Position numbers and translations under genes: made by a program. The notes under the pieces were generated by a model that saw nothing but the letters and a program-made list of their open reading frames with translations, did not search any database and was not told the origin of the DNA. Below, in pieces: positions 28,629 through 54,746 of a stretch of 64,000 nucleotides of DNA (position 1 is the stretch's first letter; every line of letters starts with the position of its first letter). Source of the stretch: a bacterium (lineage in GTDB: Bacteria; Ratteibacteria; UBA8468; B48-G9; DSTR01); NCBI GenBank assembly GCA_029551285.1, contig JAKPFT010000024.1, positions 1,317 through 65,316 on the forward strand, in the 5' to 3' direction.

Positions 28629-28697
28629 GAAGCAAGAAAAGACAAAGAAAAGCTTTTATAAGTCTTTGACAGAACCGGGCTTTTAACAGGAGGCAAC

Positions 28698-33925: not shown

Positions 33926-33955
33926 TTGACAGCAAAAGCAGCCTGGTGGTATAAT
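33926..33955 (+). promoter_or_regulatory. Sigma70-type promoter of the GntR/LacI-type regulator gene
   Basis: TTGACA (33926-31), 18-nt spacer, TATAAT (33950-55), 37 nt upstream of the ATG at 33992. Confidence 0.65.
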
Positions 33956-35113: not shown

Positions 35114-35427
35114 GGGTAGTGTCAAAAAAGGAAGAAACAAGAATGAAAAGAAAGGGAACAAACTGGCTCACTCAGAATGCTCCGGCACAGACAGGGACTA
35201 CGCCGAAATCGGTAGCTCGGCGAACTCGCTCGCCAGGGGGCGAGCTCAGACACCGCCGAGTAAGGTATTGCGTCCCGGATGGAATTGTCCGGTCCGCTTA
35301 CCGAGCGCTGCCGCTTTTCGTCTTGTCTTGTATCTGTGCCTTCGCAAATCGTTCGCCAGTTATTCCCTTCCTTTTCTGACAATGGAGAGGAAGCGGAGAG
35401 AGATAAGGAATGGCAGAACCATTGACA
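35114..35427 (+). ncRNA. Structured intergenic element, copy 2
   Basis: Starts immediately after the regulator TAA (35111-13). About 90% identical by eye to copy 1. Lies between the regulator and the pseudopilin-like operon. Confidence 0.6.
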
Positions 35428-35501
35428 GAATTAGAAAAGACAAAAAAGAATTGAAGTCCTTCACAGAACCAAGAAACAGGAGCCAACTATCAGGAGGAAA
35501 G

Positions 35502-36113
35502 ATGGAAAAGAAAGGATTTACGCTGATTGAGTTGCTGGTGGTCATTGCGATTATTGCGATTTTAGCCGCGATGCTGCTACCGGCTCTGTCGACGGCAAGA
35601 GAAAAGGTCAGGGAAGCCAGCTGCCTGAACAACCTCAAGCAGATTGGCCAGGCGATTCACATGTACCTTAATGATTATGAATTTTGCTGGTTCCAGTCAG
35701 GAGAAGCCGGCCGACAGCCGCGCTGGTATGACCCGTGGGTTTTGCCCAAATACTGCGGTGGCGGGACTGTAGCGACCAACAAAGTTTTTAAGTGCCCTTC
35801 TCATAGGCAGTGGCCTGTCTGGGGAACTCAGTCAAGTTACGCCATGAACTTTTATCTTGACCCAACCTACACCGGAATTCTCCACTCCGGACCTGACACC
35901 CTTAGCCGACGCGCCCATCTGGTAATCTTTGCTGACGGAAGCGGTAGCAATCATACCTTCTCTGGCAGCCATCTTACGCGTTTAGGACCCCGCCACACCA
36001 AAAGAGGTATTAACTTTCTTTATGTTGACGGCCATGTGCAGCTGGCCAGACCAGGAGATCTACCGGAGGATGTCTTTTTCGCCAATAATAGTAAGAAAAC
36101 CGTTGTCTGGTAA
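35502..36113 (+). CDS. Pseudopilin-like protein 1 (prepilin-type N-terminal methylation domain, DUF1559-like)
   Basis: MEKKG|[37 protein letters not shown] before the ATG at 35502; the track ORF from 35268 runs through the repeat element. C-terminal [11 protein letters not shown] motif. Confidence 0.9.
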
Positions 36114-36128
36114 AACGAGGAGGGAGAA

Positions 36129-36950
36129 ATGGAGAGAAAGAGTTCGGGCTTCACTTTAATTGAGTTGCTGGTGGTGGTAGCCATCATTGCTATTCTGGCC
36201 GCGATGTTGCTTCCGGTTCTGGGCAAAGTCCTGGAGAAGGCTTCCCGGTCGAACTGTCTTAACAACCTGAAGCAGATTTACCTCGCCTGCTGGATGTACG
36301 CCAGCGATTACGAAGACCGATTACCGGCTTTTGGTAGCGATTACACCACCTGGACAGCCAACGACAGTTATACCCTTCTATGCGGACGGGTTCCCAATGC
36401 CACCGGTCCAGGTAGTGTAATACCCAGATATATTGACAATCCGAATATTCTCCAGTGCCCCAGCCGGAAAAAAACTGCGTTTGATGTTAGTGTGCGCAAC
36501 GACCCGGCTCAGGCGTTCCGCCTTGGCAATCTTAACATTGGCTACACCATTGCCTCCGGTTTGCATATGCGGCGGGAACCCAACTACCGGGTGGTAGCCT
36601 GTGACCGAAAATGGAGTACCAGCACCAATGCTTGCACCGGTACAAGCCGGGGTAACGGCTGGTGCATCAACGGCTGGTATAATCAGCCCAGAGACAATGA
36701 CAGTACAAGGTTTTTCTCCAGCTCGGAAGGTATCCCCAACCACTGGCCGGACGGTCTAAATGTGGCTTACCTGGACGGCCATGTCGCCTGGGTGCCGATG
36801 GGGCCAATGATTGATGTTATCCCGCCAACTCAGCAATGGAACACCCATGTCCGCGGCTGGCATCTGGGGGCGGCGCCTGACCTTTCCAATCCCCAGATGG
36901 CTACCGCTTACACAAGCCCGAACGCCATTATGATGAGAGAGCCGTTCTGA
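36129..36950 (+). CDS. Pseudopilin-like protein 2 (DUF1559-like)
   Basis: MERKSSG|[24 protein letters not shown]; C-terminal [13 protein letters not shown]. Confidence 0.9.
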
Positions 36951-36968
36951 AAATGGAAAGGAGGAAAG

Positions 36969-37601
36969 ATGGAAAAGAAAGGATTTACGCTGATTGAGCT
37001 TCTGGTGGTCATTGCGATTATTGCGATTTTGGCCGCGATGTTGCTTCCGGCTCTGTCCAGGGCAAGAGAAAACGCCCGGCGGGCCAGCTGCGTGAATAAC
37101 ATGAGACAGATCGGTCTGGCCGTGGCCCAGTACTGTCAGGATTGGAACGGAAGTTTCCCGCAAAACACTTCGGGAGGAGACAATCCCGCCAACGCTTCCT
37201 GGTGCCGCCGTCTTTACCAGCAGGGCTACATCAAGGACAAGAAAATTGTCATCTGTCCTTCAGCCAGAAAATGGGGTACCTTTATGTTTAACTACGACAC
37301 CTGGAACGCTCCTTTAACCTACAGCGTACCAAGCTCGCCCAGTGAGGCCTATGCCGGCAACCTCAGCTTTGTCAGAGATACCTCCAAAGCAATTTACCTT
37401 CTGGAAGGGTACTGGTTTTACAACGGTGTTTATTATGGCTGGCACTGGGTGGGCAAGGTTACCAGCACCGCAAGCTGCCTGAACCCTGTTAGCGGCGACC
37501 GAAAACCCCATCCCAGGCATAACCTGAAACTGAATTTTCTCTTTATGGACAACCACGTGGAGTACCTGGCCGTGGAAGATATTGCCAATCTGGTCTGGTA
37601 G
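36969..37601 (+). CDS. Pseudopilin-like protein 3 (DUF1559-like)
   Basis: MEKKG|[24 protein letters not shown]; C-terminal [17 protein letters not shown] (DG replaced by DN). Confidence 0.9.
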
Positions 37602-37620
37602 TTGGAAAAAGGAGGCCGAG

Positions 37621-38382
37621 ATGAGAGGGAGAAAGGGTTTTACCCTGATTGAGCTGTTGGTGATTATTGCGATTATTGCCATCCTGGCAGCGATGCTTCT
37701 TCCAGCCCTGGAAAAGGCCAGGAAAAAAGCTGAGCAGGCAGCCTGTATGAATAACCTGAAACAATTAGGGCTCGCTTTGCGGATGTACTGGGATGACTGG
37801 GATGAGCGGATTATTCCCGCCTGGCTGGGAGCGCCGCCTGGCGGATTGGGTGCCCAGCCCCAGCCAAGAAGGCCGGCCATCTGCGAACTTCTCTATGTTA
37901 ATAACTACATCAACAACACCGAACTCTGCCGGTGTCCAGCCTGGGGATTTAAGAGAACCCGGTATCCCTATGAACCTAACCTTACCTGGGGATGGAGTGG
38001 AGCAGGCTACTATGCTGGAGGTACCAACCCGAATATCCCTGCCGCTGGCGTGTTCCTGTTTGTCTTTGACTACGGGTTTAACGGCATGTGGCCTGGCCAG
38101 GGTTCTGGTTTTGGCGACTGGAGTAAGAAGTTGAAGGATGTGCAGCGGCCTTCCCAGATTGTGGCTATGAGTGAAGCCAATGTTTCTGGCTATCTGGATA
38201 ACGCCTATTACAACAACACCTTTGCCGCTTTCACCAGGCCAGTCATCAGTCCTTCTTCCTATTATGGCCAGCCCTGGAAGGTACCCCTTCACCTCACAGG
38301 TTTCAACTATCTTTTCTTTGATGGCCATGTGGAATTCCTGTCCGCTCAACAGGCCTCAGACATCAGATACTGGATACCCTGA
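37621..38382 (+). CDS. Pseudopilin-like protein 4 (DUF1559-like)
   Basis: ATG at 37621 after AAAAAGGAGG. MRGRKG|[25 protein letters not shown]-terminal [12 protein letters not shown] (H-X9-DG). Confidence 0.9.
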
Positions 38383-39510
38383 ATGGTTGGTGCCAGAAGA
38401 ATCCCTGGAGATCTGAAGATAAAGGGTAACAGGAAGTTCTGCCTGACTGGAGTGTTGGTCCTTTTCTTCTGTTCCTGCCTTCAGGGAGCCGGCTGGCTTG
38501 ACCGGGCTTATCCCTGCCGGCAAAAAATCACCATCAGCGATGGTTTCTACCTCATCGGTTCGGACCTGAAAAACTTTCCGCTCCTGTTAGTTTTATCTGA
38601 CGGCAGCAACCCGCTTTTCCAGAAAGCGAAACCGGACGCTGCTGACATCACCTTCACCGCGGATGATGGAACCACCAGACTACCTCACGAGATAGAAATC
38701 TTTTCTCTCTCGCCGGCCAGGCTGGTCTGCTGGGTGGTCCTTCCTTTTCTTTACGCGGACCGGGAAACCGCCATTTATCTTTATTACGGTTCTTCCCAAC
38801 CCCTGGCTTGTCTGCCGGCTACGGATGTCTGGAAGGAAGGTTTTCTGGGTGTCTGGCACTTTCAGGACGCAGTGGCCCCGGATGGCAGAGCGGTGGCCGT
38901 CAAGAATTCTGCCGGAAAAACTCTGACCGGCCTGACTAATAGCAACTTCGCCGTTGAAGGAAAAATCGGCCAGGGGATGGCTGGCACAGTCAGTTTTGAC
39001 CGGAAGGATGGTCCGGAATTTACCCCGGAAACTTCTTTCAGCGCTGAGGCCTGGGCCTTCTGCAGCGAAGTACCCTTCCGGACAACGCTGTCGGTGCTGG
39101 GGAAGGGTTCCGGTGGCCGTGGCTGGTCGCTTTACTGGCATGAGGCTGGCCGGTGGCAGACCAATATCACCCATGACTACCGGAACGAAAACACCCGCTT
39201 TTACCTGATGGCACCTGACCAGCCAGCCGGTCAGTGGCGACATCTGGCGGTCACTTACGAAGCGGAAAGCAGAAAACTGCGACTTTTTGTTGACGGCCTG
39301 GAGAAAGCCTCAGGGAGAGTGCCAGACGGAATTAAGGAGTTTTCCGTGGCTTCACCTTTTTCTATCGGTGGAATTAAAGGAAGGATAGACGAAGTCAGAC
39401 TTTCTCAGGTAGCCCGTTCTCCAGACTGGGTGGCAGCCTGTGAAAAAAATCAGCGTCAGCCTGGCCGTTACATCCGGTTTGGAAAGGAAGAAGTTGTTAC
39501 TCATTCCTGA
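38383..39510 (+). CDS. DUF2341 plus LamG (concanavalin A-like lectin) domain protein
   Basis: N-terminal hydrophobic anchor. The DUF2341 pattern reads W..Y.CRQKITI..NFPLLLVL..DITFTADDGTTRLPHEIEIF..WVVLPF..IYLYYG. The C-terminal LamG-like segment reads WRHLAVTYEAESRKLRLFVDG..GRIDEVRLSQVARSPDWV. The ATG directly abuts the upstream stop. Confidence 0.85.
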   Translation: MVGARRIPGDLKIKGNRKFCLTGVLVLFFCSCLQGAGWLDRAYPCRQKITISDGFYLIGSDLKNFPLLLVLSDGSNPLFQKAKPDAADITFTADDGTTRLPHEIEIFSLSPARLVCWVVLPFLYADRETAIYLYYGSSQPLACLPATDVWKEGFLGVWHFQDAVAPDGRAVAVKNSAGKTLTGLTNSNFAVEGKIGQGMAGTVSFDRKDGPEFTPETSFSAEAWAFCSEVPFRTTLSVLGKGSGGRGWSLYWHEAGRWQTNITHDYRNENTRFYLMAPDQPAGQWRHLAVTYEAESRKLRLFVDGLEKASGRVPDGIKEFSVASPFSIGGIKGRIDEVRLSQVARSPDWVAACEKNQRQPGRYIRFGKEEVVTHS

Positions 39511-39517
39511 AAGGAAA

Positions 39518-39826
39518 AAGTAGTGTCAAAAAAGGAATGAAAGAAGAATGAAAAGAAAGGGAACGAACTGGCTCACTCAGAATGCTTCGGCACAGACAAG
39601 GACTACGCCGAAATCGGTTGCCCGGCGAACTCGCTCGCCATCTGGCGAGCTCAGACACCGCCGAGTAAGGTATTGCATCCCGGATGGACTTGTCCGGTCC
39701 GCTTACCGAGCGCGTGCGCTTTTCGTCTTGTCTTGTAGCTGTGCCTTCGCAAATCGTTCGCCAGCTGTCCCCTTCCTTTTTTGACACAGTGGAAAGGAGA
39801 GGGAGAGAGACAAGGACAGGCAGAAC
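39518..39826 (+). ncRNA. Structured intergenic element, copy 3 (first unit of a tandem pair)
   Basis: Conserved GTAGTGTC begins 9 nt after the TGA at 39508-10. Has a perfect 16-bp terminal complement, GTGTCAAAAAAGGAAT.. / ..CTTCCTTTTTTGACAC. Confidence 0.6.
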
Positions 39827-40134
39827 CAAAAAAGGAATAAAAGAGGAATGAAAAGAAAGGGAACGAACTGGCTCACTCAAGGTGCTTCGGCACAGACAAG
39901 GACTACGCCGAAATCGGTTGCTCGGCGAACTCGCTCGCCCGGGGGCGAGCTCATACACCGCCGAGTAAGGTATTGCGTCCCGGATGGACTAGTCCGGTCC
40001 GCCTACCGAACGCGTGCGCTTTTCGTCTTGTCTTGTATCTGTGCCTTCGCCAATCGTTCGCCAGCTGTCCCCTTCCTTTTTTGACAGTGGGGGGAGGAAG
40101 ATCGGGAAGATAAGGACAGGCAGAACCATTGACA
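39827..40134 (+). ncRNA. Structured intergenic element, copy 4 (second unit of the tandem pair)
   Basis: Exactly 300 nt downstream of copy 3 (TTGACA at 39781 and 40081; ATGAAAAGAAAGGGAAC at 39548 and 39848). Its 5' end lacks the GTAGTGTC segment. Confidence 0.6.
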
Positions 40135-40201
40135 GGCATAAGAAGACACTAAAAAACAACTCAACATTCTTGACAGGCCAAGAGAAACCTGGAGGCAGAA
40201 A

Positions 40202-43200
40202 ATGAAAAAGGTGCTGCTGGTGGTGTTAATTTCTGGTGCCCTTTGCACCGGGACAACCCTCAGCGCTGAAGGCCTGCCCTCTTTTGTCAACTGGTCGTAT
40301 CAGGACGCCTATCAGCGAGACAATGGCTGCCGCAACCTGATTTCCCTAAACGGGTGGTGGCGCTGGCAACTGGCTGGGAAGGAAGTCTCGCCACCAGAAA
40401 CAGGCTGGGGCTATCGGAAGGTACCCGGCTACGGTATCAACTTCAATGTTCTGGAGGCTAACGGCCAGATTTGGAAACTGAAGCCGGAAGAAAAATGCAG
40501 CCTCTGCTGGGTGGAAAGAGAGTTTACTGTGCCTTCAGAATGGAGCGGAAAGAAGGTTCAGGTAATCTTTGAATCCATTGAAGGAGACGGCGAGGTCTGG
40601 CTGGACGGACAAAGGTGTGGTTACACCTGGGACGGATGTGTCTATGCCCTGGAACTGAAACCACCCTATCGCACCAGCCCCTACCGGCTTTCCGTGAAGT
40701 CAAACGGCGTGGTAAGCAATGTCTGGCTGAAGGCGCTACCGGCTGGGCCGGTAATCACTGACGCTTATCTTTCCACCTCGGTGAGGAAGATGACCGCCAC
40801 CATAAGAGCCAGGGGTACTGGAAAACCGGAGAATAAATTGAAGGTGGTGATTACCGACTACCGTCAACCTGACAGAATTGTCCGGAGCGCCGGACCATTT
40901 TCCCTTCAGGCTGATGGCCAGGGCTGGAAACTGGAACAGGAGTTTGACTGGAAGGATGCTAAACTCTGGTCCCTGGAAAGCCCGAATCTCTATAACTACT
41001 ATCTGGAACTTTCTGACAGGCAGGGCAAAGTTATTGACCGGATCTTCCCCATCCGGTTCGGCTTCCGGGAAGTCTGGATCAAGGATGGCTCTTTCATGCT
41101 CAACCATCAGCGAATCACCATCACCAACGATATCCACTCTCCTTTAGCCATTCATCCTGCCAGAAACATGGGCCGCTCTTATAGTCCCTATACTGACGAG
41201 GACACCTGGCGCCGGATTATCAGAAGGTGGAAGGACCTTGGCGTCAACTGCGCTGAATACCGGTGGGGTGGAAATATTGATGACGAACTTCTTTTCCGGG
41301 TGGCTGATGAAGAAGGTTTTTTCATCACCATGAGCGTGCGAGGACTGGAACGAAATCCTGTCGTCCGGTCCATCCCGGCAATGGCTGCTTACAACTACGA
41401 TGTCAACGCTTATCTGATTTTTCCCCGGCGGCACTGCCCCTGTGTGCCCTTTTATTATCTGAGCAGCCTGGCTAACGCCTGGGACTATGCCCCCTTTCAC
41501 TTAGGGGAAGACTTTGATACCGAAAAACTTTTTGGAAAGAGCAACAAGGAAGAAAGAGACCTGATAGAAAAACTTGACCCGGTAAGAGCGCCGATCTCTG
41601 GTTCTTACAGCGGCGGTGGGAAAACCGAACCTTTCCACTCCTCCATGAACTACATCGGCATTCACGTTGACCTGCAATCCTACGAGAACTGGCCGCTGCG
41701 GTGGTCACAACACCGGAACAAACCGCTGCTGACTTACGAAATGGCTGTTCCGCCCTACATTGCGGAATGGTACCAGCGGCCTTCCCGGGGAACCCAGGCC
41801 CATGGTGTCCCTGGAGTTCTTCCCTTTTTTATGGAATGTGGCGCCATCTACCTGGGCGAAGAGCCGTATCTTCTGGAGCCGAAAGAAAAAATTGCCGGAT
41901 GGCTGGAAAACGTGGCAAAAGGGAAAAATCCAGGCTATCCGGCCCGGGGCGGCAGTTTGACCTACGAGAAGGTGGCGGAAATCTGCACTCATCATGTCTT
42001 TCGTTCCTGGAAGACCTATGGGGTCAATATGGGCTTTTTCGTCCAGACAAGGGAGTTTTTTGAAGAGCCGCGGATGGTTTTTCAACCGGTCAAGGTTGAC
42101 CCCAGACAGCCCGGCATCTTTCCCGACGCAGCTATTACAGAGCACATTTTCACCATGGGTCCTTTGCGACCACTGGGAGAAATTGCGCGAAAAGCCCTGA
42201 GCAAGCTTCTAATTTATATCGGCGGACCAAACGGAGAATTCACCCTGAAAGACCACTGTTACACCTCAGGAGAAACTATCACCAAAGCCGTGGTCATGCT
42301 GAATGAGTACGAACGAGCACTAACCGTATCCGGGACCTGGCAACTGTGCCAGAAAAACGGGCCGGTGCTTCTTTCCGGCAGCTGGCCAGCCACGGTCTTG
42401 CAACCCGGTGAGATTGCTCCAGCCAGGGTCCATCTCAGTCTGACCGCACCAGCAGTTAAAGAAAGGACTGATTTTGTGCTGAAACTGAAGGCCCAGGCTG
42501 ACCAGCCCGGAAGTCTGGAAGACGAATTTTCGCTGACAGTTTTCCCGCCAGCAGGCAAGCCCGTGGTGAAACCAGGTACCCAGATTTTTGTTTATGACCC
42601 GGTAGGTGATACCAGCCAGCTCCTGCGGCAGGCTGGCCTCAATTTCCAACCGGTCACCGACAGTCTTCCTGACCCGGAAAACGGCCTTTTAATTGTTGGC
42701 CGCAACTGTCTTAAAGGAGAGCCTGGCCAGATGTTTAACAGACTCCTCTACCGAAAAATGACCTATGATTTTGCCACCAATGTAGCCAACGGAATGAGGG
42801 TGCTTATCTTTGAACAGGCCCTGAATAATCTCTGGGGACTGAAAACTGAACAGGCCCGCTGGCGAAGAACCTTTATCACCGCACCAGGCCATCCTGTCTT
42901 TCAGGGCCTGGAAGCCAGCGATTTTCTTTATCTGAAGGGACACGGCAACCTCGTTGACCCTTATCCTGAGGAACCGCCAGCCACCACGGACCGAATTGCC
43001 GGCAGCCGCTTTCCCCGCTGGGGTCTGGACAATACGGTGGTAACTTATTCTCTGGTGAGGCCGCAGTTGGGCGCCTGTCGTTCTCTGCTTTCCTGCGGTT
43101 TTGACCTTCAGGAAAGCGCCCTGCTGGAGGTGGCCGCGGGCAGGGGAAGGATGATTTTCTGCCAGGTGGATGTCACCAACCGCTACGGCCAAGACCCGGT

Positions 43201-45056: not shown

Positions 45057-47411
45057 ATGAGCATGAAAAAAACTGTATTTTTCTTTCTGCTAACTGCAAC
45101 CCTGGTCCCGGGTCAGGAGGCTTCTCTAAGCCTCACCATTGACTCCCTGAAAGGTATTTACCTTGCGGCGCCGTTAGGCGAGGTGGAGCAGGAAACAGTT
45201 TCTTTTCTTCAGGAAGGTTTCCAGAAGTTTTACCAGGTTTCCCTGCCCCTTCTTTCTGAAAGTCTTCCCGAGCCAGTAGTGGTGCTTGGCCGAGCCGCGG
45301 CCCTGAAAGAAAAACTGGTCAGCGAATCCGAGCTGGAAGCCCTCAGGCCGGACGGCTACCTCATCCGGACCAGCCGTCAACGTCTGGTGATCGCCGGAGC
45401 AGACTCCTGGGCAACCTACTATGGAGTAGTGGGGTTTTTCCAGCAAGCCGGGGCAAAATTTTTCCGGGCCATCGCCGGAAAGTTCAAACCCTGGCCCTGG
45501 TTCCAGGTACCCTTTCCGGAAAATCCGGAGAGAAAAATTTCCCTTTCCCTGAAGGAGAAACCTGTCTTTGCCTACCGCTGTGGTGGGTGTCCTGTCTTCC
45601 GGCAGAGCCGGCTGGCTGACCCGAAGAAAGGCGCTACCCCGGAAATTTTTGATGCTGCTAAAACCGGTTCTAATCTGTGGATTGACCACACGGCCGGGTA
45701 CCTGGTGCCGAAACTTCTTTATTACGACCAGCATCCCGAGTACTACGCCATGGGCAAGGACGGTAAAAGAATTGCCAAAAACGGCTTCAATGACCATCAA
45801 ACTCCCCTTTGCCTTTCCCATCCTGATGTCACTAAAATCTCCATTGAGAGAGCCTTAGCCTGGATTGAGAAAAATCCGCACGAACGTTTCTTCATGATTA
45901 CCTACGGTGATACCAACTTCTGGTGTCAGTGCCCGGAATGCCTGAAGATGGACCCGGTCCCAGGGCAATACGCCACCAGACTTCTCACCTGGGTCAACGC
46001 CATCGCCAGGGAAGTAGCCAGGCGTTACCCGGACAAAATCCTGATTACCTTTGCCTATGCTGGTTCCGATACCGCGCCACCCGGGATCAGACCGGAACCA
46101 AATGTGTGGGTTTGTGGTTCCACGGGCCTGGGGAATCTTCCCTTCTGGGACCACGCTTTTGCCGGTGAGCCACCAGACTGGCTGAAGCAGAATATGGCCA
46201 AGGTTGATGGCTGGTTGAAAATTGCTCCCCACCAGTATCTGGTTTGCGAATACTTAAGCAACGTCTATCTTCCAGCCATGCTGGATACCACTGCTTCCAG
46301 ATTAAAGACTTACGGTAAAAAAGGATTGCGCGGAGTCCTTTTTACTTACGGGGCTCCAGCCAATTTCCGCAGCCTCTGGAATTATCTCTGGGGTCAGTTG
46401 ATGTGGAACCCGGACCAGGATGTGGAACAGCTCACCCGGGAGTTTCTAACTTTTGCCTATCCGGCTGCGGCCGAGCCGCTTTTCAGGTTTTTCCAGCTCA
46501 GCCGCCAGCGTTACCAGGAAACCCTGAAGGAGAAAGCCGGACTGGACCAGATGTATCCGAAGGGATACTACCAGGCTAAGTTTGTTCAGGAAGCCCTGAC
46601 CTGCTTTCAACAGGCTGAGGAAAAACTGGCCAAAGAAAATGCCCTGCTGAAAGAAATCCAGAATGAAGAAGCCCTGTTTCTGCAGAGCGTGTTAGAACAT
46701 CCCCCTGCACTGCAGTTGACTGAAGAACTGAGAAAAATTGTGGCTCTCGGCTTTAACCGGCTCAGTGCCCTGGGAAAAGCCACCGGCAAAACCGCTGACT
46801 TCTTAAGCCGTGTTAACAGCCTGGCGCTTGATGTTGAAAGAAGAATTCCCGGATACCGAGAGCTGATAGAAGAAGTTTTTGGTCAGTTGCCTGAAGGACA
46901 GCCGGTAAAACTTGCTGACGGCTTGCGGCTACCGCCGGAAATGTTTCTCCGGGCCGATTTAGGACCGACAACCAGCGCCGACTGGGTGCATCCTGACTAC
47001 AAGTTTCCCCCGAAGACTTACGTGGGGGTGCTGCAGTCAGCCAGGGACTCCCGGGGCCGGCCAACCAGTTCCGTGATGGTGGCAAAATTCAAACTGCTGG
47101 AGAAAATCTCTGGTCCGGCTACCCTGGAATTGGAAGGTCAGGACGCTATTACCAAATGGGCGGCTGGCAATCAGCGGGCAATGAGTTTTCAGGCCGCCAT
47201 GAAAATCAGCCTCAACGACCAGGAAATCTATTCCGGTCCGGCTGGTTTTGTCCGGGGCAACTGGTCACGCCGCAGTTTCCAGATTAAACCTGGAATTCTT
47301 CAGGCAGGAGAAAACACTCTAAAAATCGCCAATATCAGCCAGGGATGGGCCTTTTCCACCTGTTACCTGTTAATCAGCGATGCGGTACTGAGATGGGGTC
47401 AGTCCAATTAA
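45057..47411 (+). CDS. DUF4838-family glycan-active protein, paralog 1
   Basis: Signal peptide. GH20b-like N-domain (LVIAGADSWATYYGVVGFFQQAGAKFF). HPEYYAM; Cys cluster FWCQCPECLKMD; MWNPDQDVEQLTREF. C-terminal beta-sandwich-like tail. Confidence 0.85.
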   Translation: MSMKKTVFFFLLTATLVPGQEASLSLTIDSLKGIYLAAPLGEVEQETVSFLQEGFQKFYQVSLPLLSESLPEPVVVLGRAAALKEKLVSESELEALRPDGYLIRTSRQRLVIAGADSWATYYGVVGFFQQAGAKFFRAIAGKFKPWPWFQVPFPENPERKISLSLKEKPVFAYRCGGCPVFRQSRLADPKKGATPEIFDAAKTGSNLWIDHTAGYLVPKLLYYDQHPEYYAMGKDGKRIAKNGFNDHQTPLCLSHPDVTKISIERALAWIEKNPHERFFMITYGDTNFWCQCPECLKMDPVPGQYATRLLTWVNAIAREVARRYPDKILITFAYAGSDTAPPGIRPEPNVWVCGSTGLGNLPFWDHAFAGEPPDWLKQNMAKVDGWLKIAPHQYLVCEYLSNVYLPAMLDTTASRLKTYGKKGLRGVLFTYGAPANFRSLWNYLWGQLMWNPDQDVEQLTREFLTFAYPAAAEPLFRFFQLSRQRYQETLKEKAGLDQMYPKGYYQAKFVQEALTCFQQAEEKLAKENALLKEIQNEEALFLQSVLEHPPALQLTEELRKIVALGFNRLSALGKATGKTADFLSRVNSLALDVERRIPGYRELIEEVFGQLPEGQPVKLADGLRLPPEMFLRADLGPTTSADWVHPDYKFPPKTYVGVLQSARDSRGRPTSSVMVAKFKLLEKISGPATLELEGQDAITKWAAGNQRAMSFQAAMKISLNDQEIYSGPAGFVRGNWSRRSFQIKPGILQAGENTLKIANISQGWAFSTCYLLISDAVLRWGQSN

Positions 47412-47424
47412 CGAAGGAGAAAAA

Positions 47425-50250
47425 ATGGCGAGAAAAATGCTAATGCTGCTTCTGGTTTCCCTGATAGTCTCGGGAAACCTTTACTCTCTGGAAAAGGTGC
47501 TGGTTCTGGAAGACTGCCAGAGCAACCGCTGGCAGGGAAAAGGTGCACCACAGACCTGTCAGTACCAGCCACCTCTTGGCCAGGCAAGGCCGGGACTAAA
47601 GGTAAGTTTGCCAGCCGACATTTTCCTTCCTCTGGAGGCTAACTTAGAAGGAGCCGGCAGTCTGGCCTTACGCGCTGCTTACCAAAATCCGGTGAAAATC
47701 ATTCTGAGAATAAAAAGCGGGGAAGGCAATTTTTCCGTTCAGTTTTCCGCTGGTCCGGGTGAAGAGGTTGTTCTTCTTCCCCTGGGTGTCTTTGAACGGG
47801 CAGCCAGCACAGCCGGCTGGGAAAAAATTGACGGGATACAAATCCTGGCCGAAACTGACTCTCAGGCGAAAACCACCGGTTTCACCTTGCTGGGCCTTCA
47901 GGTCCTGCCGCCGACAACCACGGTGGCTGGCGAAGAGCTTTTCCTGGTGCGGCCGGTCAATAGAATCAATCCAGTTGGACACGCCTGGCCACTTTACGCC
48001 ATTCTGTCGGAAGCAGTCTATCCGGAGAAAACAGAGCAATCTCCACCGGTCTTGCAACGGTTGTTGAAGGAAATGTACGGTCTCACTCTGCCGGTCAACC
48101 CGAAAACACTCTCCGCTGCCCAAGGAATTAAAAATGTGATCCTGATGGGTCCGGAAGCGGCCCTCAAATCCGGTACAGTGAGCCGGACTCAACTGGAAGA
48201 ACTGGGCTATTTTGGCCTTTTCGTGAAAGCGGAAGACGGCTTGGTGACGATTGCCGGCCTTAACCGGCACGGCACCGCCTATGGCACCTATGCTTTCTTA
48301 GAAAAACAGGGCTGCCGCTTTTTCGGTGGAAACTGCCAGCAGATTCCACGGAAAGAAGAGAAAGTAGTTCTTGCCTGTCAGTTCCAGGACAAGCCCTTCT
48401 TTCCTGGACCGCGCATCGGGCCAGGCTATGAAATTTACGGAGCGCCCTCTGACGCCTGGGGACTGGCTAACAAGGCTGAAAACCAGGAGTTTTTCACTGA
48501 CATCTCCTGGGGATGGCGGGAACATACCGCCGGCTACCTGGTTCCCAGACAACTTTACTACGACAAACACCCTGAGTATTTCCGTCTTCAAGGAGATGGC
48601 ACCCGGTTACCGAAGGATACCAGCAATTTTCGTACTGTGATCTGTACCACCCATCCTGATGTCCTGAAGATTTCTGCCGAACGCGCCCTGAGATGGATTG
48701 GCCTGCAGCCTGACCGGAAGTTTTTCTCCATCACTCAGGGGGATGACCATGAGTGGTGCCGTTGTCCCCGCTGCCGCTCCATGGAGTACCAGAGTGGTAA
48801 TTACAGTGATATGATGCTTTACTGGGTTAACTATGTTGCCAGAGCGGTGGCGAAAAAGTATCCGGACAAAGTGCTGATTACTTACGCCTATGGTCCCACC
48901 CAGCCACCGCCGGTCAAGCTGAAACCGGAGCCCAATGTTTACGTTTTTTACTGCGCCTGGCCGAATGCCACTTCTGCGCCCTGTGGCATCCGGGACTTTG
49001 ACGCTCCGGAAAACTATCTGGCCAAACACGAAATTGAAGGCTGGCTCAAGGTGGCTCCTGGCCGGGTGGGACTTTACGACTACAACGCTTACGGCTGCTA
49101 CACCTTAAACGGGATGGCCTGGAAGGTTAAATGGTGCGCCCGTCGCAACATGTGCGGCTTTATGTATTGCGGAATCAACCAGTCCTTTCAGCCGCTGTTC
49201 CGCTATGTCCACTCCAAACTGAACTGGAATCCCTTGCTGGAAGTAGCAACCCTGAAGCATGATTTTATTTACGCTTATTACGGTGCCGCGGCACCGGTGA
49301 TGGAAAAAATTATCAACTCCATCTATGACCGGATTGAGTACGGTCACTATGATAGCCGTATGCACGGGGTTCCGCCGGCTGACTACTGGAGCAAACCTTT
49401 TGTTACAGAAACCCTGGCCCTTTTTGACCAGGCTATCTCGCTTTTGCCTGGGGACCGCCGGGGATTAACAAGCGAGGTAATTAAGGACCGAAACTGGTTT
49501 GTGGATAACTGCCTGGCCGCGACCAGACCAGCCGGCCGGAAATATACAGAGGAAGAACTGGAAGTCTTCGCTCTCTGCCTGAAGGAATACATCGCCAGAT
49601 GGCTGGCTGAACACGCTGAACAGGTAAACAAGGCCTGGAAAGAGAAGAAAAAAGCCCCTGGCTATGAGGAAATCGCCAGCAAACTCTGGAACTGGGCCAG
49701 AATCAAGGTGGAAACTGACCTGCCGGAAAACGAGGTGCCGCCTGTCCTGACAAGGTTGATGACTAACCCGGTGGAAACCATTAAGAAGGAGATGGTCACG
49801 AATTTTGTAGAAAAAATCCCGGACGGCTTACGTATCAGCGCTCACGCCTTCACCGGTGGCCAGGTGTGGTCAAAATACGGCTGGCTGTGTGAACCTAAGG
49901 ATGGGGCCATCGTGCGGGGAACAATGACAGAATTTTCCCGGATGCAGGCCAGATTCACCCTGGACCGGTTACCGCCAGGAGAAAAGGCTTTTCTGGAAAT
50001 AGAAGGACAGGATAGCGATAAGTACTGGTGCCAGCCGGTTCCCATTCAGATTCTGGTCAATGGCAGGAAGGTTTTTGAAGGACGCAACGGCTTCGTCAAA
50101 AGAGGATGGTCCCGTCAGACCTTTCCTCTGCCTGAAAATGTCCTGAAAACAGGCGAAAATGTGATTGAAATTCGCAACTTGGCCAACAGCGACAGTCTGA
50201 TTTCCCACTGGGTAATTATCCATGAGGTACTGGTAAAATTTCGCCACTGA
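47425..50250 (+). CDS. DUF4838-family glycan-active protein, paralog 2
   Basis: Signal peptide; VTIAGLNRHGTAYGTYAFLEKQGCRFF; HPEYFRL; EWCRCPRCRSME; LNWNPLLEVATLKHDF. Confidence 0.85.
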   Translation: MARKMLMLLLVSLIVSGNLYSLEKVLVLEDCQSNRWQGKGAPQTCQYQPPLGQARPGLKVSLPADIFLPLEANLEGAGSLALRAAYQNPVKIILRIKSGEGNFSVQFSAGPGEEVVLLPLGVFERAASTAGWEKIDGIQILAETDSQAKTTGFTLLGLQVLPPTTTVAGEELFLVRPVNRINPVGHAWPLYAILSEAVYPEKTEQSPPVLQRLLKEMYGLTLPVNPKTLSAAQGIKNVILMGPEAALKSGTVSRTQLEELGYFGLFVKAEDGLVTIAGLNRHGTAYGTYAFLEKQGCRFFGGNCQQIPRKEEKVVLACQFQDKPFFPGPRIGPGYEIYGAPSDAWGLANKAENQEFFTDISWGWREHTAGYLVPRQLYYDKHPEYFRLQGDGTRLPKDTSNFRTVICTTHPDVLKISAERALRWIGLQPDRKFFSITQGDDHEWCRCPRCRSMEYQSGNYSDMMLYWVNYVARAVAKKYPDKVLITYAYGPTQPPPVKLKPEPNVYVFYCAWPNATSAPCGIRDFDAPENYLAKHEIEGWLKVAPGRVGLYDYNAYGCYTLNGMAWKVKWCARRNMCGFMYCGINQSFQPLFRYVHSKLNWNPLLEVATLKHDFIYAYYGAAAPVMEKIINSIYDRIEYGHYDSRMHGVPPADYWSKPFVTETLALFDQAISLLPGDRRGLTSEVIKDRNWFVDNCLAATRPAGRKYTEEELEVFALCLKEYIARWLAEHAEQVNKAWKEKKKAPGYEEIASKLWNWARIKVETDLPENEVPPVLTRLMTNPVETIKKEMVTNFVEKIPDGLRISAHAFTGGQVWSKYGWLCEPKDGAIVRGTMTEFSRMQARFTLDRLPPGEKAFLEIEGQDSDKYWCQPVPIQILVNGRKVFEGRNGFVKRGWSRQTFPLPENVLKTGENVIEIRNLANSDSLISHWVIIHEVLVKFRH

Positions 50251-50262
50251 AAAGGAGACCCG

Positions 50263-53200
50263 ATGAAGACAAGAACAATCCTGATACTATTACTGGTCAT
50301 GGCTTCTGGCCTGGCTGCCTTTGACCTGCGGACGCTGAAGTCTATCCAGGTGGCTCAGCCAGTGGCCTGGCCGGAAAAAGAGGCCGCGGAAGAGTTAAAC
50401 CGGAGATTGAAATCCCTTTTGGCGCTGGAAGTCCCCATTGCCACCGGGCCGGTGCAGACCTCAGAACCAGCCATTTTCGTAGGACGAGAAGCCGCCACCG
50501 CTTCCGGCCTGGTCAGCAAGGACGAACTGGAAGCCCTCAGGTACGATGGTTACCTGGTCAGGATTTCCCCCTCGGGAATTGCCCTGGCCGGGTACCGTGC
50601 CAGGGGAACTCTTTATGCAACTTATGCTCTCCTGGAAAAAATGGGGCTAAAACTCTACCCGGGTCACCGCTCTTTAGGAACTATAGAAAGTATTCCCCGG
50701 ATAATGCCGACCTCCCTGCCTGAAGGCAGTTTCTCTTCCAGACCTTTTTTTGAATACCGCAGTCTCCTGGACTACCTTGACCGGGGAATGTTTGGAGGTT
50801 CCTGGCAGGACCTGGGTAATCCCCAGGAAGCCGCCAATCAGGAAATTCTTGGCCGGCAGGCACAAAAAACCTGGTTGCCAGGCGAGTGGCTGGGCAGTGA
50901 CCATACGGCCGCCTACCTGGTGCCGAAACAACTGTACTACGACAGCCACCCGGAATACTTTGCCGTCTCTGGCGGGAAACGGTTGCCCCGGGAAACTCTG
51001 ATGCAGAGAATGTCTCTTTGCCTGAGCAATCCTGAGGTTCACCGGATTGCTGCAGAAAGAATGCTGGAGTGGATGAATCTTCAGAACGACAGGAGGTTTT
51101 TCTACTGTACCGACGCTGACGCTGATGCCTGTCGCTGCGCGCAGTGCCTGGCCTTAGATTACTTCCATTACTACTGCACAGACCGTAACCTGGCCTGGGT
51201 TAATTCGGTGGCCAGCGCGGTGGCTAAAGCCCATCCGGAAAAAAGACTTTTTGCCTTCGCCTATGGTCCGACGGTGAAACCGCCGGTTAAGGAGAAACCA
51301 GCCGCCAACGTCATTGTGCTTTACTGTCCCTGGTACTGGAGCTCAGCAGGGGTGCGCTATGCTTCCTGGGCTCACCCTAAAAACATCACGGCCATGGAAG
51401 AATTCATGGGCTGGGCAATGAAGTTTCCTGACCAGATGGGTGTTTATGACTACCCGGGACATGGCGCCTGTCTCTGGCTGGCCGGCCATATAGACCGGGT
51501 CAAGTGGTATGCCAGGAATCGGGTAAGAACAGTTTACTGCTGTGGCACACCCACGCTCTTTGACGGTCTCTTTCTCTATGTCATCAGCCGCCTGAACTGG
51601 GATCCCTACCTTGACTCGGAAAAGCTGATAGAGGAATACGTCAGGGTAGCCTACGGCCAGGCTGCCCCACCAGTTTTGCAGTATCTTGAGTTAGACCGCG
51701 AATTAGCCACTTCCGGCCCAGGTCACATCCTTGCTGATAAGGAACATATGAGGCTGGGAAGAAATCTTCTGAGACAGGCCTGGCAGCTGGCCAGTAAGGA
51801 TTCTGCGGAGGTACAGTGTAAGTTAGCCTTTGACATCCTTACCTTCCTTACCGACCGCTTTTCTTACTTTGCCCCCCGGCGTCAGAGTTCTCTCTCCGAG
51901 CAGGAGATCCGGGAATATCAGGAAGATGTTATCTGGTATCTCAACAGCAGCCATCTTCTTATGGCCGAGGCACTCCGGAGAAAAAGTCAATGGCTGAAAA
52001 ATTCCCTGGAAAAGCAAATGAAGGAAACCCTGGAGTCCCTTAACCTGAAGTACGAAGAAATCGTGGAGGACCCGGCCAGGGATAAGAAGGAACCGCCTAC
52101 TCCGGAACAGATTAACAGCCGTATCATTGTCCATCCTGAAGTCATCATCAAAGAGCTATCACCAAAGTTAGAGCCGCCTTCAGAACGTCGTCTGGTCCCT
52201 ATCGTTGACCCTGCCCGGGAAAAGGAGGTACAGCCCTGGTCAGTGGAGTCAACCCTTCCGGAAACGGCCAGCAGCCCCGTCAAAAAATTATCTCAGGTCA
52301 ACCCGGGACAGTCGGTTCCTGCCGTCAGCGTCAGCCTCCCTTTGACTAAACTGCCCAGTTTTCACCTGCCCATTTCAGAAAAAGGAAAGAAAACTATTCG
52401 GGCCGGTTCCTTTGCTCTGGTTAAGAAATTAGCCACTCCGGTAAATATCTCCGGATGCGATTTCGTCGAGTTTCACCTGGCCAGTTCTACCAGTGTGCCG
52501 GCCACCTTTTACCTTGACCTCACCGGCATTACCGGGGTGCGCAGCGACATCCTTCTTCATCCCGGCGAGCAGATTGTCAGAATGGATTTAAGACAGCATG
52601 CCGCTTGCGCCTGGGCCAGGCAAAAAGAAAAATGGGACGGGACTATCTCCGGAGTGAAAATTGAATTCTGGCCCCAGGACAATTTTTATCCCCATCCTGA
52701 GGTTAAAGATGCAGAAGTACAACTGCTGAGTGTTTCTGCCATGAACTATTCCCACCAGCCATCAGATTTGCCCTATCAGGGGAAGGTCGTCTGGCTAACG
52801 CAGTTTCGGCCCAACCTCACCTATAATCTACCTGTGCCCAGGCAACTGTGGCGGAAACGACCCAACAAGACAGCCGATAGAGATAATTATGAAGGCGAAC
52901 GGTTCCGCACTTTCACGGCTGACCGGTGTCTGACACCGCTGCGGGCTATTCTGACCGGCCAGGGGGTTTCCCCGGCGGAAGTCAGAGCCGCCGAAGCCTT
53001 ACAAGCCTATCTGAAGAAACTCTTCGGAATAACCCTGCCTATAAATCCACCAGGCGCAAGCATTGACGGCCAGACGGGCAATGCCTTCCTGCTGGGCCAG
53101 GCGGCCGCTCTGGCCAGCCAGCGGGTCAGCCGGGAAGAACTCCAGTTTGCAGGACCTGAAGGCTTTGTTATCCGGGCCCACCAGGGTGTAGTAATTATTG

Positions 53201-53613
53201 CCGGTCTATCACCTGAAGGTACCGCTTACGGGGTCGCCCGGTATCTGGAAGACCACGGCGTCAGGTTCTTCCAGCCAGAGACCAGGGAAAAACTGCCGGA
53301 TTTAAGCGCTGCTTTCCTGCACGAACTCTACCTTCTGGACTGGCCTTACCTTTCCAGAAAAGGCTTAACGGCTGGCTGGCAGCTTGGCTGTCAGAACGCT
53401 TACCAGCCGGCTCCTTCTTCAGGAAGTCCGGCTGAGGTGGAAAAAATTGCCGAAGCCATTAAGGACTGCTGCCGGAAAAATCAGTCAGTTCCGGAGGAAC
53501 TCTTCAGCCAGGCTACCACATCCAACTTAGGCCTGTATGTAGCCGCCAAACTTCTCTGGAATCCTTTTCTGGATACCAGCCGGCTCATCAGGGAATTTGA
53601 AGAGAAAAAATAA
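50263..53613 (+). CDS. DUF4838-family glycan-active protein, paralog 3, with a degenerate second unit at the C-terminus
   Basis: Signal peptide; IALAGYRARGTLYATYALLEKMGLKLY; HPEYFAV; ACRCAQCLALD; LNWDPYLDSEKLIEEY. The last ~225 aa repeat the N-domain (VIIAGLSPEGTAYGVARYLEDHGVRFF) and the terminal LLWNPFLDTSRLIREF segment, but lack the Cys-cluster core. Confidence 0.85.
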   Translation: MKTRTILILLLVMASGLAAFDLRTLKSIQVAQPVAWPEKEAAEELNRRLKSLLALEVPIATGPVQTSEPAIFVGREAATASGLVSKDELEALRYDGYLVRISPSGIALAGYRARGTLYATYALLEKMGLKLYPGHRSLGTIESIPRIMPTSLPEGSFSSRPFFEYRSLLDYLDRGMFGGSWQDLGNPQEAANQEILGRQAQKTWLPGEWLGSDHTAAYLVPKQLYYDSHPEYFAVSGGKRLPRETLMQRMSLCLSNPEVHRIAAERMLEWMNLQNDRRFFYCTDADADACRCAQCLALDYFHYYCTDRNLAWVNSVASAVAKAHPEKRLFAFAYGPTVKPPVKEKPAANVIVLYCPWYWSSAGVRYASWAHPKNITAMEEFMGWAMKFPDQMGVYDYPGHGACLWLAGHIDRVKWYARNRVRTVYCCGTPTLFDGLFLYVISRLNWDPYLDSEKLIEEYVRVAYGQAAPPVLQYLELDRELATSGPGHILADKEHMRLGRNLLRQAWQLASKDSAEVQCKLAFDILTFLTDRFSYFAPRRQSSLSEQEIREYQEDVIWYLNSSHLLMAEALRRKSQWLKNSLEKQMKETLESLNLKYEEIVEDPARDKKEPPTPEQINSRIIVHPEVIIKELSPKLEPPSERRLVPIVDPAREKEVQPWSVESTLPETASSPVKKLSQVNPGQSVPAVSVSLPLTKLPSFHLPISEKGKKTIRAGSFALVKKLATPVNISGCDFVEFHLASSTSVPATFYLDLTGITGVRSDILLHPGEQIVRMDLRQHAACAWARQKEKWDGTISGVKIEFWPQDNFYPHPEVKDAEVQLLSVSAMNYSHQPSDLPYQGKVVWLTQFRPNLTYNLPVPRQLWRKRPNKTADRDNYEGERFRTFTADRCLTPLRAILTGQGVSPAEVRAAEALQAYLKKLFGITLPINPPGASIDGQTGNAFLLGQAAALASQRVSREELQFAGPEGFVIRAHQGVVIIAGLSPEGTAYGVARYLEDHGVRFFQPETREKLPDLSAAFLHELYLLDWPYLSRKGLTAGWQLGCQNAYQPAPSSGSPAEVEKIAEAIKDCCRKNQSVPEELFSQATTSNLGLYVAAKLLWNPFLDTSRLIREFEEKK

Positions 53614-53681
53614 GTCCGTTGGGTTGGAAAGGTGACTGGCACTGAATAAACCAAACCCGTACTAAAATTCCGACTAGTGAA

Positions 53682-53930
53682 AGTAGTGCAGAAGTGTGTC
53701 TGACTTCGGAAAGATTTCTGCGCACACGCCTTGCCGCAGACAAGACTACGCAGCTAATCGGTCGCGGGAGCGAACTCATTCGCCTTCTGGCGAACTGGAG
53801 ACACCGCCGGGTAAGGTGGGCGTCCCGGATTATGTTTTTCGGGAGGCTTACCGAACGCTGCCGCTTTGGCTGCTTGTCTTGTAGCTGCGCCATCGGGATA
53901 GCGTGGCTTGAAATCTCCCCTCGTTGACAC
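53682..53930 (+). ncRNA. Structured intergenic element, copy 5 (diverged; supplies covariation)
   Basis: The core 53733-53890 aligns to copies 1-4 at roughly 80% identity by eye. The flanks differ in sequence but remain mutually complementary. Confidence 0.55.
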
Positions 53931-53972
53931 CCTGGTTCTTATGTCGAAATTTTGGAAATCCGTGAGCCTGAC

Positions 53973-54001
53973 TTGACATTAATGCCGGAAGGTAATTTAC
54001 T
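53973..54001 (+). promoter_or_regulatory. Possible sigma70-type promoter for the small ORF at 54048
   Basis: TTGACA (53973-78), 17-nt spacer, TTTACT (53996-54001). The -10 matches 4 of 6 positions. Confidence 0.25.
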
Positions 54002-54047
54002 AAAAGGGGAAGCTGTTATCATACCTGTTGGCTGTTGAGTGACCGGA

Positions 54048-54260
54048 ATGAAAGATCAGTTTCCTGGAAAGCCGCCGATAGAGGAACTTAAAGGTAAATC
54101 TCCGGAAGAGATTGCAGCCATTGCCGAGGAGATTGCCCGGGCCAATTCTGAACCGGAGTACACTGTCTGGAGTCTGGCAAAACGACAAATTATTGTCCTG
54201 GTCGTTCTCTGGGTCCTGGCGCTGCTGGTACTGCTGCTGGTGCCATTTTTTGTTAAATAG
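54048..54260 (+). CDS. Small C-terminally anchored membrane protein (hypothetical)
   Basis: 70-aa ORF from the ATG at 54048. Acidic N-terminal half and one strong TM segment, IIVLVVLWVLALLVLLLVPFFV. Confidence 0.4.
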   Translation: MKDQFPGKPPIEELKGKSPEEIAAIAEEIARANSEPEYTVWSLAKRQIIVLVVLWVLALLVLLLVPFFVK

Positions 54261-54287: not shown

Positions 54288-54746
54288 TCAACTGGAAGCC
54301 TTAGCCCTGATGACCAGAACCGGGCACGCCGCGGTCCGAATAACCCTTTCCGCTACAGAACCAAACAAAAAGTGATTGAACCCGGTTCGGCCGTGGGTGC
54401 AGATGGCTATCAGGTCCACCTGATAGTGGCTGGCCAGTTCGGCGATGGATTCGGCTGGCTGGCCCAACCGCACCACTGTTTTGACCTTCAGTTTCCTGTC
54501 TTTCTGGAGTAAGCGTTCGGCCAGTTTCTTCAGGTTATTTCTGGCTGAGGAGAGCATTTCTTTCTCGTACCTGGTGACATCAAAGTTCAGCGAAGGCGGA
54601 GAGACAGGAATGGGCTGGACTATGTGGCCAATGATAATCTGGGCTCTGAAAGACCGGGCCAGGGTAATAACAGTCTCCATAGCCTGTTCCGCTAAGGCAC
54701 TGAAGTCTGTCGGCCAGAGTATTCTTTTTATCTTCTTCACCATCAC
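54288..54746 (-). CDS. Universal stress protein (UspA family)
   Basis: ILWPTDFS..; C-terminal LIAICTHGRTGFNHFLFGSVAERVIRTAACPVLVIR (ATP-binding G-x2-G-x9-G-S/T motif region). Confidence 0.9.
   Translation of the reverse strand: MMVKKIKRILWPTDFSALAEQAMETVITLARSFRAQIIIGHIVQPIPVSPPSLNFDVTRYEKEMLSSARNNLKKLAERLLQKDRKLKVKTVVRLGQPAESIAELASHYQVDLIAICTHGRTGFNHFLFGSVAERVIRTAACPVLVIRAKASS

Follow-up and report, generated by a model that had tools for sequence, protein, structure and literature searches.

The structured stretch at positions 53682 to 53930 of the analysed DNA belongs to a family of small dispersed repeats. A sequence-only reading had described it as a diverged fifth copy whose compensatory base changes mark a functional RNA. 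Our analysis indicates, with a probability of roughly 0.65, that copy 5 and its relatives are lineage-specific MITE-like elements with a conserved fold that is expressed in read-through mRNA. The repeats have defined ends and flanking duplications, their distribution is restricted, one insertion site is empty in a relative, and their fold shows covariation; a new MITE-like family with a conserved fold is the best reading of them. In one uncultured bacterium they have entered dozens of sites close upstream of genes. The window, by which we mean the whole 64,000-nt stretch, contains five related copies, each on the plus strand and flanked by plus-strand genes. Copies 1-4 occupy units at 28318-28598, 35116-35395, 39520-39798 and 39821-40100, and the diverged copy 5 lies near 53683-53929.

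The limits of copy 5 were set with an alignment of five copies of its subfamily, which we call subfamily B. Conservation begins at CTAAAATTCCGAC and finishes at GTCG(G/A)AATTT(CAG/TGG). Copy 5 has an extra outer inverted repeat (CTAAAATTCCGAC at 53662-74 and GTCGAAATTTTGG at 53943-55), indicating that the element spans 53662-53955 and that the interval 53682-53930 was drawn too narrowly. The features of this locus are as follows.

53662-53955, plus strand: full extent of copy 5, subfamily B, 294 nt, containing 53682-53930 (five-copy subfamily-B alignment)
53662-53677, plus strand: left terminal inverted repeat CTAAAATTCCGACTAG, pairing with 53938-53955
53938-53955, plus strand: right terminal inverted repeat CTTATGTCGAAATTTTGG, reverse complement AAATTTCGACATAAG
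53653-53661, unstranded: left copy of the flanking direct repeat, AAACCCGTA; putative target-site duplication, 7/9 match to 53956-64
53956-53964, unstranded: right flanking direct repeat AAATCCGTG, partner of 53653-61
53712-53729, plus strand: 5' strands of the rod helices, AGATTTC 53712-18 and CACGC 53725-29 (sequence and fold)
53727-53895, plus strand: conserved core, helices P5-P11 with a four-way junction (covariance model R1, 134.7 bits, E ~1e-27)
53973-54001, plus strand: promoter-like site, TTGACA at 53973, 17 nt, TTTACT at 53996 (read from the sequence; below the scanner threshold)

The reverse complement of the right terminus, AAATTTCGACATAAG, differs from the subfamily-B left-end consensus at one position, and in L037 and L051 (loci from the metagenome search described below are given by L numbers) the terminal repeat is a perfect 15-18 bp (CTGAAATTCCGACATAAG / CTTATGTCGGAATTTCAG). 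The outer stem that had been proposed to replace the A6/T6 stem of the other copies, AGATTTC 53712-18 with GAAATCT 53910-16 and CACGC 53725-29 with GCGTG 53901-05, is present, and these rod helices recur in longer form in L037, L051 and L058 (GGGAAGATTT/AAATCTTCCC). The core of copy 5 has 35 Watson-Crick pairs among its 45, together with 5 G-U and 2 A.C pairs, and holds the pairs noted earlier at 53735-39/53885-89, 53750-57/53866-73, 53779-84/53789-94 and 53824-29/53838-43. Two of these were exactly as described: the hairpin TTCGCC 53779-84 / GGCGAA 53789-94 replaces a C-G pair of the GCTCGCC copies with U-A, and CGCAG 53735-39 / CTGCG 53885-89 replaces an A-U pair of CACAG/CTGTG with G-C, and both stay paired. 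An 8-bp helix with one U-G pair is likewise rebuilt, with GCAGCTAA at 53750-57 as reported, but its partner TTGGCTGC lies at 53866-73; the interval 53766-73 given for it reads GGGAGCGA and was a typing error. CCCGGA at 53824 pairs with TTCGGG at 53838 through one G-U, as claimed, but the conclusion drawn from that wobble, that the RNA is the plus strand, does not hold for the family as a whole (see below). Copy 5 also carries several broken pairs near these stems, such as an A.C at the first hairpin base and a C.C in GCCGCAG/CTGCGCC.

Copy 5 and the promoter-like site are followed by a 73-aa ORF (54039-54260, plus strand) with a C-terminal hydrophobic helix. A 152-aa ORF on the minus strand (54288-54746), which by eye resembles a universal stress protein, converges on it, and there is a terminator-like hairpin at 54226-54245, near these convergent ORFs 3' of copy 5.

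A search of metagenomes with a related core pattern returned 57 contigs, mostly from a few data sets of the anaerobic-digester type. In these, nhmmer found 78 hits and R1, a covariance model of the core with 167 positions and 45 pairs, found 76, of which 69 were distinct (53 metagenome contigs plus the window). About half of the contigs end within a copy, as expected of a repeat that breaks assemblies. The pattern hits in L001, L008, L012, L030 and L048 were coding-like chance matches and were set aside. The copies fall into two subfamilies. Subfamily A includes copies 1-4 and has cores that are 92% identical. The older group, subfamily B, comprises copy 5, L005 and L031 (both identical to copy 5), L037, L051 (which overlaps a partial copy, L045), L058 and L009; cores in this group are 81% identical. 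Between A and B the cores are 73% identical, whereas the arms are ~55% identical, near background, and the termini differ. The subfamily-A cassettes of the window are:

28317-28676, plus strand: copy 1, core 28380-28547, termini GGTAGTGTCAAA / TTTGACAGAACC, next start codon at 28698
35115-35470, plus strand: copy 2, core 35178-35344, flanked by genes for a GntR/LacI-type regulator and a DUF1559 pseudopilin-like protein
39520-40179, plus strand: copies 3 and 4, a tandem pair with tail, cores 39583-39749 and 39883-40049, period 300, upstream of a GH2-like gene

The family has a restricted distribution. In 185,579 species-representative genomes, one scan with a strict core pattern produced no real match, and R1 found no copy in ~78 kb from related genomes, compared with five in the 64 kb of the window. 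Rfam 15 gave no hits at the gathering score over the whole window, and over 28000-54500, with E up to 5, returned only three chance hits, none within the copies; a known RNA family was rejected on these results. A phage or plasmid origin was rejected after BLAST of copy 3 against plasmids and of copy 5 against phages found nothing, and two pattern hits on viral contigs were chance, with no match to the model. The closest named relatives of the window's proteins are from Candidatus Omnitrophica MAGs, and the gene content (DUF1559 pseudopilins, sulfatases, glycoside hydrolases, HypD) would fit an anaerobic glycan degrader of the PVC group (Planctomycetota-Verrucomicrobiota-Chlamydiota). The window also contains four tandem DUF1559/N-methyl pseudopilin-like paralogues (35502-38382) and three tandem DUF4838/GH67N-like paralogues of 784, 941 and 1116 aa (45057-53613). 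These two sets of paralogues, which have no relation to the element, give rise to repeat families D2-D4. A perfect sigma-70 consensus at 33926-33955 (TTGACA, 18 nt with TG, TATAAT), ~35 nt upstream of the GntR/LacI-type regulator gene, indicates that the organism probably uses canonical promoters.

The core structure was drawn from the alignments, with 45 curated pairs. The core, ~165 nt at the tip of the rod, is modelled as a four-way junction of P7, P8 enclosing P9, P10 and P11:

P5: GGCACAG/CUGUGCC
P6: ACAAG/CUUGU, with a hypervariable 2-nt bulge
P7: CGAAA/UUUCG
P8: UCGGU/GCCGA, enclosing hairpin P9
P10: long hairpin
P11: small hairpin

The junction bases GCGAACUC, AGACACC and GAGUAA are invariant. 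Across 45 distinct cores aligned with MAFFT, 95% of cells were paired and 14 of the 45 pairs changed on both sides, compared with 5.0 ± 1.4 after column shuffles (0/500) and 2-6 when the partners were slid by 1-3 columns. A model-based alignment of the 69 distinct copies gave the same picture (95% paired, 14 both-side pairs; shuffles 4.5-5.0 over the two alignments). The substitutions singled out in copy 5 keep pairing, and covariation across the family is above both controls. Thus, the central observation of the sequence-only reading holds across the family. Among the changes, P9 goes from GCUCGC/GCGAGC to GCCCAC/GUGGGC in L026 and L042, P10 from GCG/CGC to UGU/ACA in L042, and a G-C pair becomes A-U in L006 and L026; P7 has a G-C flipped to C-G among subfamily-B copies. 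P8 and P11 show one-sided changes only. Two other candidates were rejected. An alternative helix, CUCGGCG/CGCCGAG, is broken in subfamily B and in several subfamily-A variants, and a CsrA-type GGA-loop is inconsistent with a loop that varies (GGAAUU in some copies, AAACUU in others).

Pairing statistics did not identify the strand that acts. The argument from wobbles, that G-U pairs are tolerated only if the plus strand is the RNA, fails in the family: G-U occurs in 14 pair columns and A-C in 15, with only a slight lean to G-U in divergent copies. Moreover, the minus strand was the more stable in 38 of 40 full copies, by a mean of 9.7 kcal/mol, and in 47 of 50 copies for the curated core. The plus strand was better in copy 5 and L051 only, which is why the wobble argument looked convincing when made from copy 5. 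The z-scores were -3.35 (plus) and -6.24 (minus) for copy 3 and -4.68 (plus, -120.9 kcal/mol) and -5.48 (minus) for the full span of copy 5, with -4.1 for the plus strand of the interval noted earlier. Wobble asymmetry is therefore not decisive as a strand test, energy asymmetry points the opposite way for subfamily A, and balanced wobbles with a stable minus strand can neither name the RNA strand nor separate RNA from single-stranded DNA. The poorer thermodynamics of the plus strand in subfamily A count against our preferred explanation. They would be accounted for if the functional molecule were the minus-strand transcript, antisense to the operons and acting as a small RNA or antisense regulator, as would the minus-strand z-scores of -6.2 and -5.5 for copies 3 and 5. 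We consider this very improbable. A scan revealed no minus-strand promoter-like site beside any copy, and the sole terminator-like hit was one weak minus-strand match within copy 1. The plus strand is the better one in copy 5 and L051, and subfamily-A copies are ~92% identical, which brings 38 of 40 close to one observation.

Many of the covariation events are haplotypes common by descent. The fold could be a by-product without selected function: the element would have begun as a palindrome-like transposon, template switching in quasi-palindromes, together with gene conversion between its many copies, would preserve or restore pairing, and the sense bias would reflect only the removal of polar insertions. 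Compensatory changes are documented to arise, with no RNA function involved, from template switching at DNA replication (PMC8794818), and several properties of the family agree with this mechanism. The paired sites lie close together and so are linked by descent; variant modules have been shuffled between copies as haplotypes, with hybrid AU/GC hairpins in 7 copies (A.C plus U.G in P9); G-U and A-C intermediates are balanced; and both strands fold far above shuffles, the minus strand better still. On the other hand, short-range template switching poorly explains P5 and P7, which covary with strands >100 nt apart. The slid-partner control preserves relatedness among the copies and yet yields only 2-6 double-change pairs against 14. 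Finally, the core keeps many invariant unpaired junction bases at 73% identity between subfamilies whose arms and termini are unrelated. We judge a by-product origin unlikely, and favor a MITE-like element with a maintained fold.

The ends of the elements are those of a mobile element. The subfamily-A termini GGTAGTGTCAAA and TTTGACAGAACC are inverted repeats, the left end GGTAGTGTCAAAAAA agreeing at 12 of 15 positions with the reverse-complemented right end, GGTTCTGTCAAAGAC, and subfamily B has inverted termini of its own (CTGAAATTCCGAC...GTCGGAATTTCAG). Direct repeats of ~9 bp lie outside the subfamily-A ends: GTTT(A/T)GCCGG in L014, GGTTGC(G/A)GG in L042, GGCAGGG in L057 and AACCATGA(G/A) in L006. 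L037, in subfamily B, is flanked by a perfect 11/11 repeat, AAACCCCGATG. Over 17 cassettes the flanks matched at a mean of 6.2 of 9 positions, compared with 4.0 for mismatched flank pairs (permutation, 0/20,000), and at 7 or more of 9 in 8 of the 17 cassettes, compared with 3% of the null; the repeats are weak or decayed at several cassettes, including window copies 1 and 2. The family thus combines small size without a conserved ORF, terminal inverted repeats, target-site duplication and dispersed copies with an empty site, all features of MITEs.

The empty site comes from L006. Its duplication, AACCATGA, spans the upstream stop codon and the downstream start codon, and in L072 (GCA_964645405.1) the orthologues of the two flanking genes (62% and 57% aa identity) are adjacent, overlap at ATGA and have no element between them; what stands at this overlap is exactly the sequence duplicated in L006. 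From its sequence, the L072 junction is the predicted empty site for the L006 insertion, in a distant relative (~60% aa identity) rather than a sister strain. A search for empty sites among the fetched loci returned self-matches only, and an exact-protein look-up with the gene upstream of copies 3 and 4 gave no match. At copy 1 there is no clean empty site, since the orthologue of the upstream gene precedes a different gene in relatives. In L060 (12236-12327), downstream of a 72% identical orthologue of that gene, a short spacer has CATAGCC..CTGGCAGAACC at its end, before the Shine-Dalgarno sequence, and resembles the short tail variant of L026 and L006; the similarity is not significant by nhmmer, and the spacer may be a relic or a coincidence. 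Solo tails were absent from relatives at E of 1 or better. The window and ~440 kb of fetched loci yielded neither a transposase gene nor a longer element that ends in these termini. L072 and L073 1464-3247 also carry a regulator-plus-pseudopilin operon like that at 33992-36113 in the window; in these relatives the GntR-type gene and the first DUF1559 gene overlap by 4 nt. The equivalent junction in the window carries copy 2; this is a likeness of architecture, not established orthology.

Units of 280-300 nt form cassettes of 294-660 nt. The longest head-to-tail arrays count four, five or more units; the period is 297-303 nt and the junction motif is constant, GGCAGAACC joined to AAAAAAGG. One locus has at least 4 units in L019 (6228-7402) and 2 in L029 (3051-3625), with identical distal units, reflecting either copy-number variation in the array or collapse in assembly. 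The copy 1 cassette (28317-28697) also precedes a ThuA-like gene in L062 2320-3000 (Ga0116245), there with two units; upstream of the ThuA-like gene is a GATase in L062 and a 748-aa protein in the window. This difference would be due either to repeat-mediated rearrangement or to an assembly, possibly that of the window, that is chimeric at the repeat.

Regular arrays and a conserved multi-helix junction are what might be seen if the unit were a new self-cleaving ribozyme that cuts array or polycistronic transcripts to unit length, like satellite-type repeats. We find this scarcely credible. No known ribozyme family matched at E up to 5, the sequence bears no mark of a cleavage site, and unequal recombination is a simpler source of arrays whose unit number differs at one locus (L029, 2; L019, at least 4).

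We also rejected protein coding. The minus-strand frame is often open and array periods are multiples of 3, yet the open frame varies by copy; 1-nt indels shift frames, and several copies have stops in all six. The periods are nearly all multiples of three (297, 300, 303) in window 39520-40100, L002, L019, L034 and L056, which may be chance. Minus-strand ORFs of 86-153 aa occur in every window copy (28400-28699, 35122-35382, 39497-39958, 40003-40290 and 53588-53893), and in L062 2703-3002, minus strand, public gene calls give a 99-aa "protein". Given that the frames differ between copies, the annotated ORFs are probably spurious.

The position of the elements relative to genes is strongly constrained. 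In 31 of 33 arrays the first ORF downstream has the same orientation as the element; both exceptions represent the copy-5 locus, which does have a co-oriented ORF, the 73-aa one preceded by a promoter-like site. Genes on the upstream side point the same way in 32 cases and are divergent in 7. Copies of subfamily A begin 0-25 nt past the upstream stop codon, and from the structured unit end, as defined by nhmmer, to the next start codon there is ~100 nt of conserved tail, GATAAGGA..GCAGAACCATTGACAGAA..AAGACU-loop-AGUCUUUGACAGAACC. Lying in sense upstream of genes and, in subfamily A, within operon spacers, the copies could plausibly be transcribed by read-through. The motif CAGAACC was considered as a general upstream motif and rejected; outside cassettes it occurs only within genes. 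The downstream genes are unrelated: they encode PGK, DHDPS, lumazine synthase, AhpC, ClpB, ZnuA, a T2SS ATPase (T2SS-E) and glycoside hydrolases, among others, and 32 downstream proteins contain 66 different Pfam families, none common to more than 2 proteins. Three subfamily-B copies lie ~10 nt upstream of a -35 box (L051, TTGACA-17-TATAAT; L037, TTGACT-17-TATTTT; window, TTGACA/TTTACT), which argues against a leader-RNA role for those three.

These positions bear on another reading of the core, as a dedicated cis-acting RNA (for example a leader, an aptamer-like switch or a site to which a global regulator binds) that controls the downstream gene and was merely spread by transposition. Conserved secondary structure with covariation and a four-way junction with invariant bases would be expected of such an RNA, as would sense copies at a fixed ~100 nt from start codons. 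A pyrimidine tract, CCUUCCUUUUUU, could, as read from the sequence, pair with either of two purine tracts. Nonetheless, we regard a dedicated cis-acting RNA as distinctly improbable: the downstream genes have no common function, arrays run to five or more units, the three subfamily-B copies lie outside the transcript of the adjoining promoter, relatives with the same operons and gene order lack the element, the plus strand is not favored thermodynamically, and Rfam has no match. In particular, the unrelated downstream genes, the subfamily-B copies upstream of promoter-like sites and the absence of the element from related genomes make a gene-specific regulatory RNA unlikely.

A plain MITE does not account for everything either. 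The core is better conserved than the termini, which is the reverse of the usual MITE pattern. Since it is conserved above both arms and termini, a minority reading stays alive in which the core would be an RNA payload with a function of its own, namely a leader module that binds a protein or a ligand. Carried on at least two unrelated transposon chassis and placed in sense before dozens of unrelated operons, it would be a mobile genome-wide regulator in an Omnitrophota-like bacterium. Subfamilies A and B do have the core in common, and neither arms nor termini. We hold this reading to be quite unlikely, and continue with a MITE-like element whose fold is maintained.

In the model that we favor, each element has terminal inverted repeats, a long imperfect rod of two arms and a core at the rod tip. 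Insertion leaves the ~9-bp direct repeats, one insertion split the gene pair that in a relative overlaps at ATGA, and head-to-tail arrays have formed by multiplication of the units. A DDE-type transposase, of the common cut-and-paste class and encoded elsewhere in the genome, would move the elements. Such an enzyme is expected to insert them both ways, so the sense bias would have to be put down to selection. Only sense copies in the short spacer before a gene would survive, being transcribed within the operon mRNA. In the opposite orientation, the mRNA would contain a more stable fold and a long U-rich run, predicted to be polar on downstream genes. The sense strand, with its purine-rich tail and TTGACA motifs, would keep the downstream gene expressed. 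The core fold itself would be maintained by selection, most probably as a stable structural module in read-through RNA, either a barrier at mRNA ends or to processing or a protein-binding site, and would not be a gene-specific sensor.

These findings temper the original interpretation. That pairing is kept while sequence changes is borne out by the 95% of paired cells and the 14 of 45 pairs, but the assertion that this is not expected from a mere repeat does not survive, as the element is itself a transposon-like repeat. Neat compensatory changes between repeat copies are insufficient to call a functional RNA; a transposon-like repeat shows the same pattern. The conserved hairpin fold is real, and a purpose-built functional RNA is not thereby proven. 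For work on bacterial repeats and operons, the points of interest are a core conserved above the ends that a transposase should need, a single orientation always just before a gene, insertions that split translationally coupled gene pairs, and variable numbers of units per array. In practice the effects are modest: metagenome assemblies of this lineage break, and may be scrambled, at the repeats, whose minus-strand ORFs are being annotated as genes.

Several known repeats resemble the family in part. Correia elements of Neisseria and ERIC sequences of enterobacteria have a role in RNase processing. Both are MITEs that place long hairpins in read-through mRNA and may carry promoter hexamers at their ends (PMC3184786). 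They are simple near-palindromes of 100-160 bp found in both orientations, whereas the present family has a branched core at the tip of a rod and a single tolerated orientation. GTAG-tagged REPs, which are mobilised by RAYT transposases, have an unpaired GTAG at one end, are intergenic and often follow stop codons (PMC3733652). Subfamily A likewise starts with GGTAG, is intergenic and often follows stop codons, but the GTAG may be a coincidence: each REP is one GC-rich hairpin of 20-40 bp, tagged GTAG or CGTC and lacking target duplications, compared with branched elements of 280-400 bp and ~9-bp duplications here, and no RAYT gene was seen in the window or the fetched loci. REP2 of Neisseria and IR-A/IR-B of Borrelia lie in sense just upstream of many unrelated ORFs, with stem-loops and promoter-like motifs (PMC3184786), a placement and content that the present repeats have as well. 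REP2 is without terminal inverted repeats and includes the RBS and ATG. By contrast, the present elements have inverted termini, and the Shine-Dalgarno sequence and the start codon, being beyond the duplicated target, are those of the host gene.

A further likeness is to bcr1 of the Bacillus cereus group, a MITE-like repeat of ~155 bp that is transcribed with neighbouring genes and whose compensatory changes keep a branched, cruciform-like RNA fold (PMC3184786). Like bcr1, the present family is a dispersed transposase-less repeat with short flanking direct repeats and a fold with compensatory changes (PMC3184786). The two have no sequence similarity, and bcr1 is transcribed, whereas transcription of the present elements is a prediction. 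The present elements are two to three times longer, with duplications of ~9 bp compared with 5 bp for bcr1, and they further differ from it in their tandem arrays, in a core that exceeds the termini in conservation and in their near-absolute sense orientation.
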